Below, piece by piece: positions 55,571-64,000 of a stretch of DNA of 64,000 nt; positions within the stretch are counted from its first letter, which is position 1; every line of letters starts with the position of its first letter. The notes beneath the pieces are model-generated. The model was not told the DNA's origin, made no database searches, and saw nothing but the letters and a program-made list of their open reading frames with translations. The DNA is from Myxococcota bacterium (GTDB taxonomy: Bacteria > Myxococcota_A > UBA796 > CAJQPC01). A program made the translations under genes and the position numbers. Location of the stretch: positions 160,001 through 224,000 of the forward strand of contig DASCPX010000129.1 in assembly GCA_036012755.1 (NCBI GenBank). The letters run 5' to 3'.

Positions 55571-57400
55571 ATGAGCGACCAGCAGGATCCTGCCCTCGAA
55601 GAAGAGGAAGAAGAGACCAATCTCGTCAGCCACGAGGACTACATCCTCAGGGCGGAACGCAGCGTTGGTACCTCCAAGGCGGGCAAGGCGGCGAACGGTG
55701 CGGTCCTGGCGCTGGCGCGGGCCGCGCGGAGCTTCCTGCTCTACGACGCCAGGAACGCCGCCATTCGCGCCTTCCTCGACGACTTCCAGAAGCGCATGGA
55801 CCATTTCTTCGCCCACCACGGCGAGATGTCCCTTCAGATCCGCCCTTTCGAGATGGTGCTCGAAGGAGGCGAGGTCATCTACGTCGAGCGTGACCGCACC
55901 CGCAGCCTTGCCTTCCGGCTCTTCCGCGACGGTGTCCGCAACCTCGTCATCGAGGCGACGGTCAACTGGGACGAGCTGCTTCGCCTGCTGGAGATCCTGT
56001 CCATTCGCTACACGGGGATCCGCTCCCAGGAGGACGACATCGTCACGCTCCTGTGGAAGGCCGCGTTCCAGAACATCCGGATCCAGGCGGTCGAGGGCGT
56101 CATGCTCGACGAGGAGGAAGAGCGCGTGGCCGAGGGGGGCTACGGCGGCTACGGCGGCGCCTACGCTGGCGACGGAGACGCGGAGGCCCAGGACGGTGAG
56201 TACACGGGCCCTGCTCGCCGGATCAGCGCCCAGTTCGACGCCCCCCGCGACAGGGACCGACCGCTCCCCCGACTCGGGGAGTCCAGGGAGCTGCGGTATG
56301 CGCCGCTGACCCGCGGCCAGGTCGACATGCTCAGGGCGGAGCTCGACACGCAGGACCTCGCATTCGCCAGCCTCACGCTGGTCGAGCGCCTGCTGCACCT
56401 CGTCAACGACCCCGTCGACCCGATGGTGTTCGAGGACGTCCGCCACTTCGTCATCGAGCTCCGAGTCTTCCTCATGGCCGAGGAGCAGCTCGGCTCGCTC
56501 GTGACGCTCATCGACCTCGTCGCCTCCGTCGAGGACGCAGACCCGGACGCCATCCGACCGATCCTCGCCGGCTTCGTCGACGCCCACGCCATCCGCCGCA
56601 TCCTGAAGTCGATCCAGCACACGCACTCCCAGCCGCCCGACGAGCTCCTCCACCTCCTGGACCTCGTCGAGGGCAACCACCTCGACACCTTCATCGAGCT
56701 CGTCGAGGTCGAACGCGGCGCGGCCCCTCGGCGCATCGCTCGCCAGCTGGTCGAGCGCTACATCCCCGGGAACGAGGACTACGCCATCCAGCGCATGCTC
56801 GCAGCCAGCGACCCGGGCGTCATGCGCGACCTGCTGCGCGCCTGCGCCCACGCGGTGCCGGAGCGAACCCTGGAAGCGGCAGAGGCCCTCGCCGCCACCG
56901 GCGAGCCGGACGTGCTCCGCGAGCTCCTCTATTTCCTGCAGCACATCCCCTCGAGCCACGACGCCTCCGCCGCGCTGTTGAACCTGCTGAACTGCGGCGT
57001 CAGCGAGGTCCGCACCGCCGCCATCGACGAGCTCGGTCAGCGCGAGCACACCCAGGTGCGCCCGCTCATCACCCACCTGACCGAGCACAGGCCGCTACCG
57101 AACGAGGAAGCGGAGGCCTTGGGCCTGGCCATCGCCCGCCTCGATCCGCGCCTCGCCCAGGTCCGCTTCCGCGAGTGGATCCGTCCGGGCGGCTTCTTCG
57201 CCCGCTTCTTCGCCGGCTCGGGTGACGTGACGCTCCAGTTCGCTGCCGCCGCGGGGCTCGAGCTCCTCGACGAAGAGGGGGACGACGCCCTGCTCGAGTG
57301 GCTTGGCAAGCGAGCTGGAGACGATCTCTACCGTCGCTGCAAGGCGAGCATCGTTCGTCGCAGGCAGCGGCGCCGCGGAGGGGCCGCAGCCCATGTCTGA
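55571..57400 (+). CDS. HEAT-repeat-like protein
   Basis: LARAARSFLLYD..N, LFRDGVR.L, helical repeats; overlaps the next gene. Confidence 0.65.
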   Translation: MSDQQDPALEEEEEETNLVSHEDYILRAERSVGTSKAGKAANGAVLALARAARSFLLYDARNAAIRAFLDDFQKRMDHFFAHHGEMSLQIRPFEMVLEGGEVIYVERDRTRSLAFRLFRDGVRNLVIEATVNWDELLRLLEILSIRYTGIRSQEDDIVTLLWKAAFQNIRIQAVEGVMLDEEEERVAEGGYGGYGGAYAGDGDAEAQDGEYTGPARRISAQFDAPRDRDRPLPRLGESRELRYAPLTRGQVDMLRAELDTQDLAFASLTLVERLLHLVNDPVDPMVFEDVRHFVIELRVFLMAEEQLGSLVTLIDLVASVEDADPDAIRPILAGFVDAHAIRRILKSIQHTHSQPPDELLHLLDLVEGNHLDTFIELVEVERGAAPRRIARQLVERYIPGNEDYAIQRMLAASDPGVMRDLLRACAHAVPERTLEAAEALAATGEPDVLRELLYFLQHIPSSHDASAALLNLLNCGVSEVRTAAIDELGQREHTQVRPLITHLTEHRPLPNEEAEALGLAIARLDPRLAQVRFREWIRPGGFFARFFAGSGDVTLQFAAAAGLELLDEEGDDALLEWLGKRAGDDLYRRCKASIVRRRQRRRGGAAAHV

Positions 57401-58769
57401 CGACCAGATCGCCAAGGCGCAGGAGCGCCTCGGCAAGACGATGCACAAGGCCCGGGCCGGAGAAGACCGCGAGATCGCGCGTTGGATCCGGGAGGACGGA
57501 CTGCGCTTCGCCCAGGTGCTGACGGGCCTGCTCCGCCTCATCCGCATCCACGACCTGAAGAACGCCGCCTTCGACACCCCGGTCAAGCAGTTCATCGGCG
57601 CCAATCGCATGATCTACGAGCGCCTCGGGGCCATCCACCTCGTCGCGGTCGAGGACCAGGTCTACATCAACGACATCCGCCTCCGCTTCGAGGATCGTGG
57701 CGAGGGCCCCTCGCTCGCCCAGCTCATGCGTGTCCACGCGGTCGGCGGCATCTCCTGCCACTCCGTGCTGACCGACGCAGAGGTCCGGGAGTTCGTCTGG
57801 TGCTTCGCTCAGAAGCCCGCAGAGGACTTCCCACGCCAGGCGATGAGCAAGCTCCTGGAAGAGAGGGGGCTCAGCACGGTGCAGGTCTTCGGTGTCTTCC
57901 GCTTCAGGTTGGCCGGAGAGGACCACCAGGTCCGCCAGGTGTCTGGCGAAGTCATCCTGGAGCGCACGCGGGGCGCCGTTGCAGAGGCCTGGAACAACAT
58001 GGGCCACGGGCGGCTCCCCAACCCCCTGCCCTTGCGCCGCGCCGTCACCGAGATCCTAGAGCGCGGTGTCGCGGGCGAGGACCTCTGGGAGGAGGCCAAG
58101 ACCGCGGACCGTCATGGCGCCCACAGCACCCGTGTCTCCCGCCTGGCGCTGCTCATCGGCACGGGGCTCGGCCTCTCCGAGGCTCAGCTGCAGGACCTTG
58201 GAGTCGCGGCGATCTTCCACGACATCGGCTACGCCGCGCGAGAGGGCGTCGACGAGGCCAACAACGAGCCGGGCTATGCACCGCCCTTCGAGCGCCACGG
58301 CTCGGCGGGGGCTCGCCTCCTGCTGAGGCAACGAGGCTTCCACGAGGCCCGGATCCACCGCCTCCTCGCGGTCCTGGAGCACCACGAGGACTACGACAGT
58401 CGGGCAGGAAAGCCCTCGCTGTTCGGCCGTATCCTCCGCGTCGCAGAAGACTACGACAACCTCACCTACAGCGAGGAGTGCCGCTACTGTCCAGCCATGG
58501 CGCTGGCGTACATGGCGGGCAAGTCCGGGCGTGACTACGACCCCTTGCTGCTCCAGATGCTCATCAACGCGGTGGGCTGCTACCCGCCGGGCACGCTGTT
58601 GCGACTCGCCGATGGACGCGAGGTTCGCAGCGACAGCCTCGTGCGAAGCCCCGCCAGCTTCAACAAGCCTCTGTGCGTCGTGACCCGACTGGCCTCCGGA
58701 CAGGAGGCCGCCGGACGCCTCGAGGTCGACCTCGCCAACGAGGGCGAAGTCCTCCACGTCGTCGTCTGA
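57393..58769 (+). CDS. HD-GYP-like domain protein, degenerate
   Basis: HSTRV, FHDIG, HHE, RILRVAEDYD, YDP, YPPGT; no GYP loop. Confidence 0.75.
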   Translation: MSDDQIAKAQERLGKTMHKARAGEDREIARWIREDGLRFAQVLTGLLRLIRIHDLKNAAFDTPVKQFIGANRMIYERLGAIHLVAVEDQVYINDIRLRFEDRGEGPSLAQLMRVHAVGGISCHSVLTDAEVREFVWCFAQKPAEDFPRQAMSKLLEERGLSTVQVFGVFRFRLAGEDHQVRQVSGEVILERTRGAVAEAWNNMGHGRLPNPLPLRRAVTEILERGVAGEDLWEEAKTADRHGAHSTRVSRLALLIGTGLGLSEAQLQDLGVAAIFHDIGYAAREGVDEANNEPGYAPPFERHGSAGARLLLRQRGFHEARIHRLLAVLEHHEDYDSRAGKPSLFGRILRVAEDYDNLTYSEECRYCPAMALAYMAGKSGRDYDPLLLQMLINAVGCYPPGTLLRLADGREVRSDSLVRSPASFNKPLCVVTRLASGQEAAGRLEVDLANEGEVLHVVV

Positions 58770-58779
58770 GGTCCGCTCC

Positions 58780-59046
58780 TCAGAAGCCCGGGTCGCAGTC
58801 GTCGCAGCGGCTGCCGCAGGAGTCGTCGTAGAGCTGGTCGCTCACCTGGAGTCCGCCGCCTGCGCAGTTGTCCTCTGCCAACACGCGGCACTCGTTGTCG
58901 CTGGCAGCCACGACCCAGCCACTGGTCTCCCCGTCGTCGCAGGCGTAGTAGCAGCAGCCGCTCGCGCCGGAATCGCCGCTGTCGAGCGGGGGAACGGGGC
59001 AGGCCGCAAGCCCCAGGAGCGCAGTTGTCGCAAGGCAGATCCGCAT
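58780..59046 (-). CDS. small Cys-rich lipoprotein
   Basis: MRICLATTALLGLAAC lipobox; 8 further Cys. Confidence 0.7.
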   Translation of the reverse strand: MRICLATTALLGLAACPVPPLDSGDSGASGCCYYACDDGETSGWVVAASDNECRVLAEDNCAGGGLQVSDQLYDDSCGSRCDDCDPGF

Positions 59047-59128
59047 CGAGTCCTCCAACCACAGCTATAGCTTTGACGGCTGCGCCCCGCAGCGGGTAGC
59101 GTCCGGCGGGAAGCAGAGGAGTACCCCG

Positions 59129-59431
59129 ATGCGGTGGATTGCAGTGCTGTGGACGCTGTGCTTTCTCGCGTTGGGAACACCCGCCTTCGCCTCCGTGTCC
59201 GGGACGCCTTCGAGCGTGCTGTACACCCCGCTGGTCGTGGAGGCTCCGCTGGTCTCCGAGGACGAGTTGCCTGACGACACGCCGATCCCTGGCGAGCGGG
59301 ACCCGGTGACGCGTCAGGACAACATGAACAAGGCCATCATCATCGCGATCATCATCGCGGAGTTCGCGCTGGTGGCCAGCTTCGGCGCTCTCATCTGCTG
59401 CTGCTGTCTCTACATGGGCTATTACTACTGA
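59129..59431 (+). CDS. small signal-TM-CCCC-YYY protein, paralog 1
   Basis: GAGGAG RBS; AFA signal; ends ICCCCLYMGYYY*. Confidence 0.8.
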   Translation: MRWIAVLWTLCFLALGTPAFASVSGTPSSVLYTPLVVEAPLVSEDELPDDTPIPGERDPVTRQDNMNKAIIIAIIIAEFALVASFGALICCCCLYMGYYY

Positions 59432-59757
59432 TGATCTACGCAATTCGCGCTGTCGCTCTCGCTCTCGCGTTCCTTGCTCTCGTGCCGGTGACCGCGTCGG
59501 CGAGCATCGCCGCTACAGAGGTCGCCGCAACAGGGGTCGCCAGCGTCGAGGCCACGCTGGTCGTGGACGCCCCCATGCTCGAGGACGGAGAGGTCCCGGG
59601 CGAGGAAGAGCCCCTCCCGGGCGAGGAAGGCAGCTCCTGGTTCAAGGACCACAAGGTCCTCGTCATCGTCCTGGGGATCTCGGCCGGCGTCCTGCTCATC
59701 GGCACGACGCTGCTCTGCTGTTGCTGCCTTGGCGGCGGCACGTCGTACTACTACTGA
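59431..59757 (+). CDS. small signal-TM-CCCC-YYY protein, paralog 2
   Basis: TGATG coupling; ASA signal; ends LCCCCLGGGTSYYY*. Confidence 0.8.
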   Translation: MIYAIRAVALALAFLALVPVTASASIAATEVAATGVASVEATLVVDAPMLEDGEVPGEEEPLPGEEGSSWFKDHKVLVIVLGISAGVLLIGTTLLCCCCLGGGTSYYY

Positions 59758-60053
59758 TGAGCCGCGCCCTCCGGCTGTTGGTCCTGGCGCTGGCCTGCCT
59801 GCTGCTGGTCCCCGCCACCGCCTCGGCCAGCTTCGACCGCGCAGAGGTCGTGAGCCAGGACGCTTCGCTGGTCGTCGAGGCGCCGGTGCTCGAAGACGAC
59901 GAGCTCCCGGGCGAGAACGAGCCCCTCCCCGACGGGGAGAGCTCGAACAAGACCCTGATCATCGTGCTCGTGCTCGTCGGAGCGGCGCTCGTGTTGGCGG
60001 CCGGGGCGGTCGTGATCTGCTGCTGTTGCTTCGGCAGCTACTACTACTACTGA
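59757..60053 (+). CDS. small signal-TM-CCCC-YYY protein, paralog 3
   Basis: TGATG coupling; ASA signal; ends ICCCCFGSYYYY*. Confidence 0.8.
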   Translation: MSRALRLLVLALACLLLVPATASASFDRAEVVSQDASLVVEAPVLEDDELPGENEPLPDGESSNKTLIIVLVLVGAALVLAAGAVVICCCCFGSYYYY

Positions 60054-60854
60054 GTGCTGCTGCTCGCGCTTCCGTTGGGCTGGCAATGGCTCGGCGAGGG
60101 TCAGCTGGAAGACCTCGTGCCGGGTCAGACGGGCGCCGCCGCGAGGTCCGCCGAGATGGCGCTGGTGACCAGGGAGGAGCCAGCCGCGCCCCACATCGCA
60201 GCCGTGGACCCGTTCACCGCTCAGCAGGTCCAGGACGTCGACGGCTTCATCAGCGGCGAGACGCTCCTGTCCCGGCAACGCCAGAAGGCTGGCGACACCG
60301 TGAAGACGCTCTACCAGGGGGCTTCTGACCACCCCAGCGTCTCACGCTGGGTCCACATCACGCCCAGCACCGGGCTGGTCTGGTGGCGGCTGGCCTGGCG
60401 GCAGGGCGACCAGCTGCAGCAGGTGATGGCCTGGGCACCTGCGGATGAGCTCGACGTCCTCGCGGCGGCGATGATGGAGCTCGAGGAGGGCACTGCCTGG
60501 AGCCCCAGTCCCCCGATGCTGCTGGTCGCCGCCGGCACCTGCGACGAGACCGCGACCGTCTCCCGCAACAGCATGATCGAGGCCAGCGCCCGGCACGAAG
60601 ACGCCCTGGCGGCCATCGCGCGGCGAGAGGGCGACATGCGCCTCCACCTCGCCGGGCGGGCGATCCTCAGCCGCTCCGCCGAGTCCTGCCTCACAGAGGT
60701 GGCCCCGAAGATGGGGGTCTGCCGCGTCTACGCGGGCGAGGCGATCACCGAGCGCGACCGGGACATCGAGGGCGAGGTGGCGCGCTGCATGGACAAGCGA
60801 GAGAAGCTCCCCGTGAAGCTCGCCGAGCGCCTCGACACGGTCGCCGCGTGGTGA
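60054..60854 (+). CDS. hypothetical protein
   Basis: GTG immediately after the previous stop; good codon usage; stop overlaps the next ATG. Confidence 0.65.
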   Translation: MLLLALPLGWQWLGEGQLEDLVPGQTGAAARSAEMALVTREEPAAPHIAAVDPFTAQQVQDVDGFISGETLLSRQRQKAGDTVKTLYQGASDHPSVSRWVHITPSTGLVWWRLAWRQGDQLQQVMAWAPADELDVLAAAMMELEEGTAWSPSPPMLLVAAGTCDETATVSRNSMIEASARHEDALAAIARREGDMRLHLAGRAILSRSAESCLTEVAPKMGVCRVYAGEAITERDRDIEGEVARCMDKREKLPVKLAERLDTVAAW

Positions 60855-61207
60855 TGTGGCTGCTGACCGGGCTCGCTTTCGCAGAGGTGCCCCAGTGCAC
60901 CGAGCTCTCCAGGCCCTACCCCTCTCGCCAGTCCGAGCGGGTCGGCACGGCCCGCAACGCGGCCTACCTGGCGCTTCGTGCCTGGCAGATCATCGTCGCC
61001 CCTGCAGACGGGGCGGGCTGCACGATGTACCCGAGCTGCTCTCGCTACGCGATGTTCGCCGTCGCTCAGGAGGGACCCGTTCGCGGGACCTTCATGGCCA
61101 CGGCTCGGGTCGTCCGGCACCACAAGGACCCCGGCTACCCGCGCTGCCGGGTCGGCGAGCGGGTCTATGTCTATGCACCGGTCGAGGCGGACAGCTGGTG
61201 GGACTGA
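60854..61207 (+). CDS. YidD-like (membrane protein insertion efficiency factor family) protein with N-terminal signal-like segment
   Basis: LRAWQIIVAP....CTMYPSCSRYA..A....G...G..MATARVVR. Confidence 0.75.
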   Translation: MWLLTGLAFAEVPQCTELSRPYPSRQSERVGTARNAAYLALRAWQIIVAPADGAGCTMYPSCSRYAMFAVAQEGPVRGTFMATARVVRHHKDPGYPRCRVGERVYVYAPVEADSWWD

Positions 61208-61950
61208 CCGCGCTGATCTGGGTCGGCGGGGCTTCCGCTGGCGAGCTCGACGAGCGCCTCGTGGACATGGGCATGGTCGAGCAGGCATACGCCGGCGCCC
61301 TCCTCGACGCCGCGGCGGCCCCGCCAGAGGAGCGTCTCGCCGCGGAGCTCCACGCAGGCAGCCTGTTGTGGGAGGCCGAGCGCTGGGACCTCGCGGCGAT
61401 CCACTTCCGCGCGGTCCCCGACGCGCGGCTGGCCTACGGCTACTCGCTCTACAAGGAGGGTCAGCACGGCGCGGCGCTGCTCGCCGTAGAGGGTCTGGAC
61501 GAGGGCCACGAGCTGGCGGGCTTCGCGGCCCTGCACCTCGACGACGTAGAAGGCGCCTTGCAGCACTGGCAGCTCGCAGGAGCCACCTCCGCGATGACCG
61601 AGGTCCAGGGGTGGGGTGAGCTCCCTCACCGTCGACCCGGTGTCGCGGCTGGTCTCAGCGCTGTGTTGCCCGGGGCTGGCCAGGCCTACGTCGGCCGCTG
61701 GGGCGAGGCGGGCAGCGCCTTGATCGTGAACACCATGCTCATCGGGAGCACGGCAGCTCTGTTGCGCCGAGAGGAGTACTTCGCCGGTGTCAGCGTCGGG
61801 CTGTTGGCCCTGTCCTTCTACGGCGGCAACATCATGAGCGCCCGCTGGGGCGCACACCGCTTCAACCGCCGGGCCCGGGAGGAGCGGCTGGAGGCCCTGG
61901 GCGGTCTCGAGCCCCGCTATCGCATCGAGGACGGCGAGCTCATCCGCTGA
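61198..61950 (+). CDS. helical/TPR-like protein with TM2-like C-terminal membrane domain
   Basis: RRPGVAAGLSAVLPGAGQAYVGRW, FYGGNI.SA...A..FN. Confidence 0.7.
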   Translation: MGLTALIWVGGASAGELDERLVDMGMVEQAYAGALLDAAAAPPEERLAAELHAGSLLWEAERWDLAAIHFRAVPDARLAYGYSLYKEGQHGAALLAVEGLDEGHELAGFAALHLDDVEGALQHWQLAGATSAMTEVQGWGELPHRRPGVAAGLSAVLPGAGQAYVGRWGEAGSALIVNTMLIGSTAALLRREEYFAGVSVGLLALSFYGGNIMSARWGAHRFNRRAREERLEALGGLEPRYRIEDGELIR

Positions 61951-62001: not shown

Positions 62002-64000
62002 TCAGTCCTCCCAGGCCGACGAGTGTCCAGCATCGGGCTCGGTGACCGTCGTGTCTCCGCTCGGGTAGGCCGTGCCATCCAGCTCGTCGTAGTCGAGCCG
62101 GATGCGCCCGTCGCCGCCGTCGCCGCCGTATGCCGAGCCGTAGGGGCAGCCGCTGTGCCAGCAGCTCGTGCCTCCCGAGCCGCCGATCGCCGAGATGGTC
62201 CCGCCGAGGCTCAGATCCGGTGAAGCCAGCCAGACCTGGCCGCCGCTTCCGGCACCTCCTCCTCCGACCTCGCCCTCCAGCGAGGTGGCGTCCCCGCCGT
62301 CGGCGCCGTCCGCCAGGATCGAGCCCGAGACGTCCAGCGACGTGCCCGCCCAGATCGCCACGAGTCCGCCTCCGTCGCCGCCGTCCCCGGTCACGTTGGT
62401 GCTCGAGGTCCCGTCGCTTTCGGTGTCCGGGGAGCCGCCGCCACCGCCGGAGCCGAGGTACCACTCGGACAGCTCGGTGTCGCCGTAGGTGTCGCCAGGG
62501 TCGCAGACCTCTGAGCCGGAGTAGCTCGTGCCTGCGGTTCCGGAGTCGCCGTAGCTGCCGCCTCCCCCGGAGTCACCGTTGTCGCCTCGCCGGGGGTAGC
62601 TGCCGCCGCCACCCTCGTTCGCGGTGGTGGTTCCAGAGGATCCCTCTGCGTTCCAGCTCTCGCCCTGGTCCGGGTCGGAGCTGTTGCTCGTGACGCCATC
62701 GCCGCCTCGATAGCCCCGCTCGCCGAGGTCGATCGTGCCGGTGATGTCGACGTCTCCGGTAGCCCGAAAGACCACGACACCGCCGCCGCCCCCGGCCCAG
62801 TCGTCGGCGTCGATCGTCGCCCCGGAGGACAAGGTGAAGTCGTCGTAGTGGGGCACGCGCTGCACCAGGACCACGCTCGAGCTGGAGTAGTCGTCCTCCA
62901 GCGCCGGCTCGATGGTCAGGGTGTTCGAGCTGACGCTGTCCACGTAGACGAACTGCCGGGTGCCGGCGTCCTCGCCCTGCTGGCTCAGGACCAGGACCTC
63001 GTCGCCGCTGGCGAAGGGCGTGCCGTCATCGACCTCGATCGAGGTGTCCTCGGCCGTCGCGCCACCGTCGAGCAGGGCCCAGTCCGCCCAGGTCTCATCG
63101 GAGGTGACCGAGCCGGTGCCGTCGCCGCCGAGTCCCTCGTTCGGACCGCGAACCACGCTGTCGTCGTACTCGTCGGCGTCCCAGTCGTTGCGCAGCCCGT
63201 CCCCGTCGATGTCGTCGTCGTCGCAGTCCTGGGTCCCGTCGGAGTCCGTGTCGGTGGCGTCCGTGTCGTCGCAGTCGTCCGAGTTCTCCACGTAGCCGCT
63301 GGGCTGCTCGCAGGTCTCGACCGAGGAGTCGGGGTCGCCCAGACCGTCGCCGTCGGTGTCCGCGTAGTACGTCGCGCTCGAGGGCCCGTCGCTGTCGTCG
63401 TCGTCGATGTCCCCGTCGCAGTCGTCGTCGATGTCGTTGCAGATCTCCTCTGCGTCCGGGTTCACGTCCTCGTCGAGGTCGTCGCAGTCGTCGCTGTCCG
63501 AGATGTAGCCGCTGGGCTGCTCGCAGCTGGCGATGGTCCAGTCCGCGTCGCCGAAGCCGTCGCTGTCGTGGTCGAGGTACCAGGTCGTGTCGGGGTTCAG
63601 CGATGCGTCTGTGTCGTCGCAGTCGTCGTCGTTGTCGACCGTGCCGCTCGGTTGGGAGCAGCTCTCGGTGCTCGAGTCCGGGTCGCCGTAGCCGTCGGTG
63701 TCCGCGTCCGTGTACCAGGTCCCGGCGTCGACGGCGTCGTCCTCGTCGACCGCGTCGTCGCAGTCGTCGTCGATCTCGTTGCAGACCTCCGTCGCGTTTG
63801 GCGAGACCTGGGCGTCTGTGTCGTCGCAGTCGTTGTCGTTGTCCGAGTAGCCGGTGGGGAGATCACAGCCCTCTGTGCTGCTGTCAGGGTCGCCGTGCCC
63901 GTCTCCGTCGGTGTCGGCCCAGTAGATGGACTGGACACCCTCGTCGACCTCGCCGTTGCAGTCGTTGTCCGCCTCGTCGCAGACCTCTTCGGCGCCCGGG
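62002..64000 (-). CDS. large surface protein with MopE-like repeats and Gly-rich adhesin-like C-terminus; 5' end outside the window
   Basis: Frame open from 63999 to 62002; DCDD..NP...E.CN..DDDC repeats; QRVPHY; GGGGG..GG.GGG repeats. Confidence 0.85.
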   Translation of the reverse strand, partial: PGAEEVCDEADNDCNGEVDEGVQSIYWADTDGDGHGDPDSSTEGCDLPTGYSDNDNDCDDTDAQVSPNATEVCNEIDDDCDDAVDEDDAVDAGTWYTDADTDGYGDPDSSTESCSQPSGTVDNDDDCDDTDASLNPDTTWYLDHDSDGFGDADWTIASCEQPSGYISDSDDCDDLDEDVNPDAEEICNDIDDDCDGDIDDDDSDGPSSATYYADTDGDGLGDPDSSVETCEQPSGYVENSDDCDDTDATDTDSDGTQDCDDDDIDGDGLRNDWDADEYDDSVVRGPNEGLGGDGTGSVTSDETWADWALLDGGATAEDTSIEVDDGTPFASGDEVLVLSQQGEDAGTRQFVYVDSVSSNTLTIEPALEDDYSSSSVVLVQRVPHYDDFTLSSGATIDADDWAGGGGGVVVFRATGDVDITGTIDLGERGYRGGDGVTSNSSDPDQGESWNAEGSSGTTTANEGGGGSYPRRGDNGDSGGGGSYGDSGTAGTSYSGSEVCDPGDTYGDTELSEWYLGSGGGGGSPDTESDGTSSTNVTGDGGDGGGLVAIWAGTSLDVSGSILADGADGGDATSLEGEVGGGGAGSGGQVWLASPDLSLGGTISAIGGSGGTSCWHSGCPYGSAYGGDGGDGRIRLDYDELDGTAYPSGDTTVTEPDAGHSSAWED

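Follow-up and report, generated by a model that had tools for sequence, protein, structure and literature searches.

The window analysed here, a 64,000-nucleotide stretch of Myxococcota DNA, carries on its forward strand a six-gene operon in which three genes for small proteins with a Cys- and Tyr-containing C-terminal tail come first, followed by an open reading frame (ORF) that we call ORF4, a YidD-like gene (ORF5) and a TPR/DUF5683-like gene (ORF6). An earlier note, made from the sequence alone, had described three paralogous ORFs of about 100 residues joined by TGATG overlaps, each with an Arg-containing signal peptide, an acidic linker, a CCCC run and terminal Tyr residues, and all of these features are found in the sequence. 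Tail protein 1 (59129..59431, +, 100 residues) consists of a signal peptide, an acidic, Pro-rich linker with LVVEAP, a C-terminal helix, CCCC (59396-59407) and YYY. Tail protein 2 (59431..59757, +, 108 residues; CCCC at 59716-59727, three terminal Tyr) and tail protein 3 (59757..60053, +, 98 residues; CCCC at 60018-60029, YYYY) follow the same layout. All three have an Arg near the start, an A-x-A|S site, the linker motifs LVV[ED]AP and [ED]xE[LV]P and four consecutive Cys, and their helices of approximately 33 residues are uncharged, apart from a Glu within the helix of tail protein 1. The downstream genes abut without gaps, as the earlier note had stated, and the GTG start of ORF4 immediately follows the stop of tail gene 3. 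Signal peptides of all proteins described here were judged by eye. A sigma-70 promoter was looked for at the operon and none was found.

The three tail genes share 52-66% of bases and 43-59% of aligned residues in pairwise comparison, and different codons are used at 16-30 of the 38-56 identical residues of each pair. Because base identity is low and synonymous codon differences are many, the genes are old paralogues rather than products of slippage. The Cys runs are encoded as TGC-TGC-TGC-TGT, TGC-TGT-TGC-TGC and TGC-TGC-TGT-TGC, as previously reported, and the argument drawn from them, that selection on the protein is favoured over triplet slippage, is backed by these codon differences, which rule out slippage as the origin of the runs. 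An assembly artefact was also considered and rejected: the region 58700-60577 is reproduced, with a single, synonymous change, in a contig from a sequencing run that is not flagged as a possible source. The genome's 96,382 stop-to-stop frames hold 119 CCCC runs, nearly all in non-coding frames, and only five frames have a CC..YY end. All five belong to the tail family (three at this locus and one each on contigs C14 and C138), and the CC..YY end is not due to chance. Library scans matched tail proteins 1-3 to no Pfam or NCBIfam family, in line with the earlier note, whose author recognised no described family of this layout; no NCBIfam model matched any of 22 tail proteins scanned from the locus and its relatives, and one relative's protein carries the database label 'hypothetical protein'. 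The ESM Atlas gave no usable feature match for tail protein 3 or ORF4.

Comparison of 23 tails refined the definition of this ending. Every one has at least two Cys within the last 13 residues and Tyr as the last residue, and 22 have an adjacent Cys pair, so that the proposed CCCC..YYY tail is conserved as a tail; the CCCC run itself, however, is present in only 6/23. What is retained in relatives is a Cys-Cys approximately 10 residues before the Tyr end, with the Cys at positions -13 to -7, after the helix, and 'exactly four Cys' is, as judged from the tails compared, a trait of the window's genus and not of the family. The C-terminal end is uncharged over 31-40 residues in 21/23 tails, no tail has basic residues after the helix, and the linker carries a (P)LVxx(A/E)P motif. 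Full matches to a tail profile were confined to the window's family in a sample of 401 genomes of the phylum; outside the family the profile gave partial helix matches only, with E above 1e-5, and the single one inspected had no Tyr end. Searching five genomes that carry stand-alone YidD/TPR-TM2 pairs (described below) for the CC..YY-stop pattern gave four matches, fewer than in the reversed control and containing no tail gene as far as they were read (one match in one frame only). Among relatives, a single tail gene and a single YidD-like gene carry a frameshift in the assembly concerned.

The tail is also found on larger proteins. On contig C138 of the same genome, the same linker and a CCCC..YY tail end a 268-residue protein that weakly matches YajG/Lipoprotein_16 (E 0.003); in another genome, a relative of this domain lacks the tail. 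A 270-residue protein of one genus also ends in the tail, and its paralogue in the window's genome has a different, hairpin-like anchor. The tail thus appears to be a swappable membrane anchor that has been appended to two unrelated domains. Four proteins of the window's genome (contigs C240, C9, C70 and C127) end in a weakly hydrophobic helical hairpin with an aromatic last residue, one of them being the hairpin-anchored paralogue of the 270-residue protein.

ORF4 (60054..60854, +, 266 residues) begins with a short hydrophobic N-terminus, a putative export signal, and comprises an N-domain (residues 1-151) and a helical C-domain. Its structure was predicted with high confidence (pLDDT 94.5, pTM 0.91). 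The N-domain has the PsbP/Mog1/DcrB fold, with a best Z of 12.5 (VIA; rmsd 2.6, 125 residues aligned), and also aligns with DcrB (Z 10.9, rmsd 2.9, 113 aligned) and SciW (Z 10.4, rmsd 2.8, 107 aligned); Foldseek found PsbP at E 8e-5, with the EagT6-Tse6 complex also in the list. The C-domain holds four invariant Cys (C163, C212, C223 and C245) and bears a weak likeness to Skp/OmpH (Z 6-7.6) that lies within the range of common helical arrangements. A Pfam scan gave no match for ORF4, the protein is not homologous to ORF6, and the family is tiny, with 16 clusters among 1.84 billion representatives; we consider ORF4 to represent a new small protein family on the basis of these searches.

ORF4 rather than YidD is the tightest partner of the tail genes by gene linkage. 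A Cys/Tyr-tail gene lies directly upstream in 17 of 20 ORF4 loci, a Cys-less counterpart in two and neither in one, while 22 of the 23 tails sit before an ORF4 gene. Tail genes and ORF4 co-occur in the same 14 of the 21 other genomes of the family, and ORF4 is present in 18/154 genomes of the order. A second operon on contig C14 consists of a tail gene (CC..YYY), an ORF4 paralogue (29% identity to the window's ORF4, E 4e-22) and a TPR-DUF5683 gene, with no YidD. Scans of metagenomes yielded no locus with a distant ORF4, and one locus with close ORF4s that bears two tail genes. The fold and this linkage together make ORF4 a candidate carrier or cognate partner of the tail proteins; a complex prediction of ORF4 with tail protein 3 (score 0.01, mark 0.32) is evidence neither way. 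The Cys-less, Tyr-less counterparts (L157:5314-5859 and L158:4048-4473) have a signal peptide, a PLxxxxxP linker and a helix, are very hydrophobic and have an acidic FDLFP motif at the end; their genomes carry no YidD other than the canonical one.

The YidD-like protein (60854..61207, +, 117 residues) passes the cut-offs of both PF01809 (47.1 bits, cut-off 27) and TIGR00278 (44 bits, cut-off 40). It has a putative signal peptide and keeps the CxxxPxC motif, the third canonical Cys is missing and two flanking Cys are added. A PDB sequence search with the YidD-like profile returned nothing meaningful. The window's genome has three YidD genes: a canonical one in rpmH-rnpA-yidD-yidC order, the operon copy, and a copy on contig C67 that stands before a second TPR-DUF5683 gene. 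From its N-terminal extension, its different locus and its separate clade, the operon protein is not an orthologue of canonical YidD; in a tree of 46 rows, in which the bootstrap had not settled, the canonical clade (100/98) and a groEL-linked clade (98/99) are each separate. As the protein appears to be exported, the role of YidD in E. coli, which is cytoplasmic and linked to YidC, is not simply transferable to it, and nor is the link to YidC-dependent insertion that the earlier note had cited. All 15 genomes with Cys tails carry a second, non-canonical YidD, and three ORF4 genomes of another family have canonical YidD only, with a Cys-less tail in two and no tail gene in the third. This link between Cys tails and a second YidD is suggestive, resting on one phylogenetic contrast.

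ORF6 (61198..61950, +; about 250 residues, start codon inferred) is a TPR-like protein with a putative signal peptide and a DUF5683/TM2-like membrane region (61609-61923) that contains an LSAxLPGAGQ motif. The earlier note had called it TM2-like. Within the ORF6 family, 11 of the 79 membrane regions do match TM2 weakly, but ORF6 itself has no Pfam match to TM2 (PF05154) and scores instead against DUF5683 (PF18935; E 0.0068, under the cut-off and covering only the first approximately 25 positions), which all 79 regions match at E up to 1 (best 8e-8). None of the 79 has a helix with a rough hydrophobicity score below 0, but several helices of YidC give similar scores, and ORF6 cannot be assigned to a particular membrane on this basis. 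Borrelia P13 (PF05628), an outer-membrane pore family according to the accessible text of PMC4827864, is not among the 25 families listed, of 32 that match the membrane region, and a PDB sequence search with the profile of this region gave nothing meaningful.

We examined the neighbourhood of ORF6 relatives in the best 80 of 124 confirmed profile loci from a species-level genome set, which span Nitrospirota, Verrucomicrobiota, Desulfobacterota, Spirochaetota, WOR-3, Myxococcota and other phyla. A YidD-like gene lies just upstream of the TPR-TM2 gene in 49 of these, is fused to it in six and lies on the other strand in two; no such gene was detected in 22, and the remaining locus is too short to tell. 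Among further loci of the window's order, YidD-like adjoins TPR-TM2 in 18/20. The YidD-like proteins of the pair are extended by a hydrophobic N-terminus; they retain CxxxPxC, and the third Cys is absent from most of them. ORF4 and a tail accompany the pair in only five of the 80 loci, all from the window's family. The earlier suggestion of a module dedicated to the tail proteins is not supported by this distribution: the pair is mostly found without tail genes and hence is not dedicated to them, and its neighbourhoods together with the YidD tree mark it as an older, general module, recruited at this operon. In 12/80 loci the upstream slot is occupied by a PEGA lipoprotein whose hydrophobic segment contains Cys, and two loci of other phyla, one of them without a detected YidD, contain a LolA-like gene.

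Several variants of the pair were also recorded. The PEGA-lipoprotein segment often reads xACxGGVFLLVPFLW and occurs in Myxococcota, Bdellovibrionota and other lineages; PEGA lipoproteins that stand directly before a YidD-like lipoprotein and a TPR-TM2 gene form a second candidate client family. The six natural YidD-TPR-TM2 fusions come from Planctomycetota, WOR-3 and other lineages, and some are followed by a second TPR-TM2 gene. A fold search with the model of one fusion (pLDDT 87) retrieved TPR proteins only, and barely tested the YidD and membrane parts. A distinct clade of exported-type YidD with TPR-TM2 stands directly after groES-groEL in six genomes of the family. In six Desulfuromonadales loci, TPR-TM2 has no neighbouring YidD and is followed by a ketopantoate reductase gene. 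A tblastn search of plasmids gave chance matches only.

A check of homologues and of their co-occurrence with the downstream genes, which the earlier note had proposed, shows that both the tail and the linkage are conserved. Of the 15 genomes with tails, 12 have the YidD-like gene after ORF4 and 11 have TPR-TM2 as well (one contig ends there), so that the claimed linkage to the YidD-like gene holds, but the strict partner of the tails is ORF4. The gene order is retained in these 12/15 genomes, across four genera, and several of them have retained the operon YidD although they also possess a separate copy of the groEL type.

We tentatively favour, at somewhat less than an even chance, a reading of the operon as a cell-envelope module for cargo, carrier and assembly. 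The tail proteins, with their cleavable-type signal peptide, linker motif, uncharged helix of 31-40 residues and Cys-Cys near the Tyr end, would be the cargo. ORF4, given its strict linkage and its fold, would act as their cognate periplasmic partner, binding the linker motif, shielding the helix as Eag chaperones do, or both. The natural fusions suggest that YidD-like and TPR-TM2-like proteins form one unit on the periplasmic side, and the gene neighbours across phyla suggest that this unit may receive Cys-bearing hydrophobic helices and help to place or assemble them in a membrane. Three tail copies could raise the dose or the variety of cargo. We infer export of ORF4, ORF5 and ORF6 by eye.

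Several observations weigh against this proposal. A rough hydrophobicity score is below 0 for 20 of the 23 tail helices, which makes them inner-membrane-type and hydrophobic enough to stay there; the tails would then be N-out/C-in, with the Cys facing the cytoplasm and thus separated from an exported YidD. Full export of the helix is nevertheless possible, as it has no basic residues after it and lies at the very end of the chain. The PsbP fold indicates no function, and most structural neighbours of ORF4 are not chaperones. Three genomes of one genus have tail and ORF4 without YidD/TM2 in the operon, the pair lying elsewhere, after groEL; the second operon on C14 likewise does without YidD, as do 22/80 TPR-TM2 loci at the threshold used, although in two of these a divergent copy is visible by eye. 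In the YidD tree the window protein groups (99/98) with stand-alone copies from five genomes in which neither ORF4 nor a tail was detected. The judgement of signal peptides by eye and the reliance of the Cys/YidD correlation on one contrast count on the same side.

The hydrophobicity of the tails would be explained if the operon encoded a stable inner-membrane complex, in which the tails are bitopic, Sec/YidC-inserted anchors that tether ORF4 through LVVxAP and the YidD-like and TPR-TM2 proteins serve as scaffold or sensor subunits. It would also fit the Cys-less relatives, in which the linker motif survives and Cys and Tyr do not. N-out/C-in anchors without basic residues after the helix are unusual, however, and all 23 tails are of this kind. 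YidC can insert C-terminal helices with short tails post-translationally, and such helices depend on an insertase that acts after translation, as the available text of PMC11589881 describes for multispanning proteins. The copy number of the tails varies from one to three and other domains also carry the tail as a graft, which suits cargo better than a fixed subunit, and we consider a stable complex unlikely. Each half of the operon occurs without the other, and the TPR gene of one second operon has lost its membrane region, as might be expected if tail with ORF4 and YidD-like with TPR-TM2 were two independent modules joined in this family for co-regulation only. The order kept in 12/15 genomes of four genera, the retention of the operon copy beside a groEL-type copy and the overlapping stop and start codons all speak against mere co-regulation, which we regard as distinctly unlikely.

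Slightly more doubtful again is a role in thiol chemistry, which takes up the earlier note's idea of lipidation (the note also named metal binding and cross-linking, which are likewise conjectural): the exported YidD-like domain would use CxxxPxC to acylate, oxidise or cross-link the paired Cys of the cargo, and TPR-TM2 would provide a membrane scaffold. Cys are present in 23/23 tails and also in the PEGA lipoproteins that neighbour the pair in other lineages, tail Cys are gone where no second YidD was found, and both Cys of CxxxPxC are invariant in 12 aligned YidD-like copies. Against this, the motif is incomplete in two divergent copies, the likely topology parts the enzyme from its site, and the correlation is again the single contrast; canonical YidD shares CxxxPxC and is given no catalytic role in the accessible parts of PMC8082313 and PMC3573977. 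A sortase-type C-terminal sorting signal, MYXO-CTERM-like, cleaved by a protease and re-anchored, would account for the C-terminal position, the signal peptides, the invariant Cys and the graft onto unrelated domains. We think it very improbable, since the Cys come after the helix, there is no basic cluster, each genome has one to five copies, and the operon genes include no peptidase family (the genome was not searched for one).

Beyond this locus, the cargo-carrier-assembly reading could be extended to a broader proposal, which we hold to be unlikely: exported YidD/TPR-TM2 would be a widespread machine, equivalent for alpha-helices to BAM/Lol, by which Cys-bearing helical anchors are inserted or matured beyond the inner membrane. 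Interchangeable carriers would serve it (LolA-like elsewhere, ORF4 with its PsbP/Eag fold at this locus), and the CC..Y tail would be a minimal, transplantable targeting signal whose Cys are possibly modified by the YidD domain. YidD is nearly universal and poorly understood, and the placing of alpha-helical anchors beyond the inner membrane and the bacterial Cys modification of such anchors are open questions. A YidD subfamily that appears to be exported, is linked to fusions and has recognisable candidate clients offers a way to test the role of the YidD domain. To this the locus adds a candidate carrier of non-LolA fold, a tail-only client of approximately 75 residues that is little more than its 33-residue tail and is the simplest candidate here, natural grafts of the tail onto two other domains, and Cys-less natural controls. 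The tail/ORF4 pair is narrow, with 18/154 genomes of one order, and its own weight is limited accordingly.

A gene oriented divergently from the operon (58780..59058, -) encodes a putative lipoprotein of 92 residues that is rich in Cys and contains CCYY; the gene is present in a single copy in the genome. It stands beside the operon in three relatives, at 78%, 72% and 47% identity, in this genus only, and its membership in the system is uncertain. Further upstream, 55571-58769 (+) encodes a HEAT-repeat protein and an HD-GYP-like protein, the HD gene being syntenic in relatives of the genus. Downstream, the product of 62002-64000 (-) is large and acidic; it contains MopE-like repeats (PF11617) and a region that resembles the gliding protein AgmC at a score under the cut-off.

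As far as searched, the gene set appears to be undescribed, a label that refers to the genes and not to a mechanism; the literature covered, largely without subscription journals and supplements, holds no description of an exported YidD or of this operon. The closest parallels are therefore partial. Like eukaryotic CYSTM-type and plant cysteine-rich tail anchors, the tail proteins have a Cys run ending a C-terminal helix and match PF22812 weakly (E 0.11-0.29), but at 13 bits against 34 they fall far under its cut-off, and they carry a bacterial signal peptide. They share with the MYXO-CTERM and other tripartite signals, as described in the accessible text of 10.1101/2023.06.07.544157, a C-terminal helix, a conserved Cys, signal peptides and modular use, and differ in having the Cys after and not before the helix, a Tyr end in place of an Arg cluster, few copies and no protease in the operon. 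Eag chaperones bind and wrap the transmembrane helices of secretion effectors, according to the available text of PMC7773334. ORF4 resembles Eag/DUF1795 proteins (DcrB, SciW, EagT6) in the fold of its N-domain and in lying beside a gene for a protein with a hydrophobic helix; it stands apart at 6-16% identity, with no Pfam match, an extra Cys-containing helical domain and a putative export signal, in an operon that has tail and YidD-like neighbours, no type VI secretion genes and no prePAAR effector linkage. It also departs from Lol-type carrier pathways, the operon having a PsbP-fold protein and no carrier of LolA fold. The membrane regions of the ORF6 family match DUF5683 (PF18935) and TM2 (PF05154), whereas ORF6 is under the cut-off and has an added N-terminal TPR; in the accessible literature on DUF5683 no function was found. 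For YidD, the sole role described in the accessible text of PMC8082313 and PMC3573977 is that of an insertion helper linked to YidC/SecYEG, and the available text of a 2026 review of membrane insertion (PMC13261788) does not mention it. ORF5 is like canonical YidD in passing both cut-offs and in keeping the amphipathic helix and CxxxPxC; unlike it, ORF5 has a putative signal peptide, lacks the third Cys, and belongs to a family that lies outside rnpA-yidD-yidC and is paired or fused with TPR-TM2.

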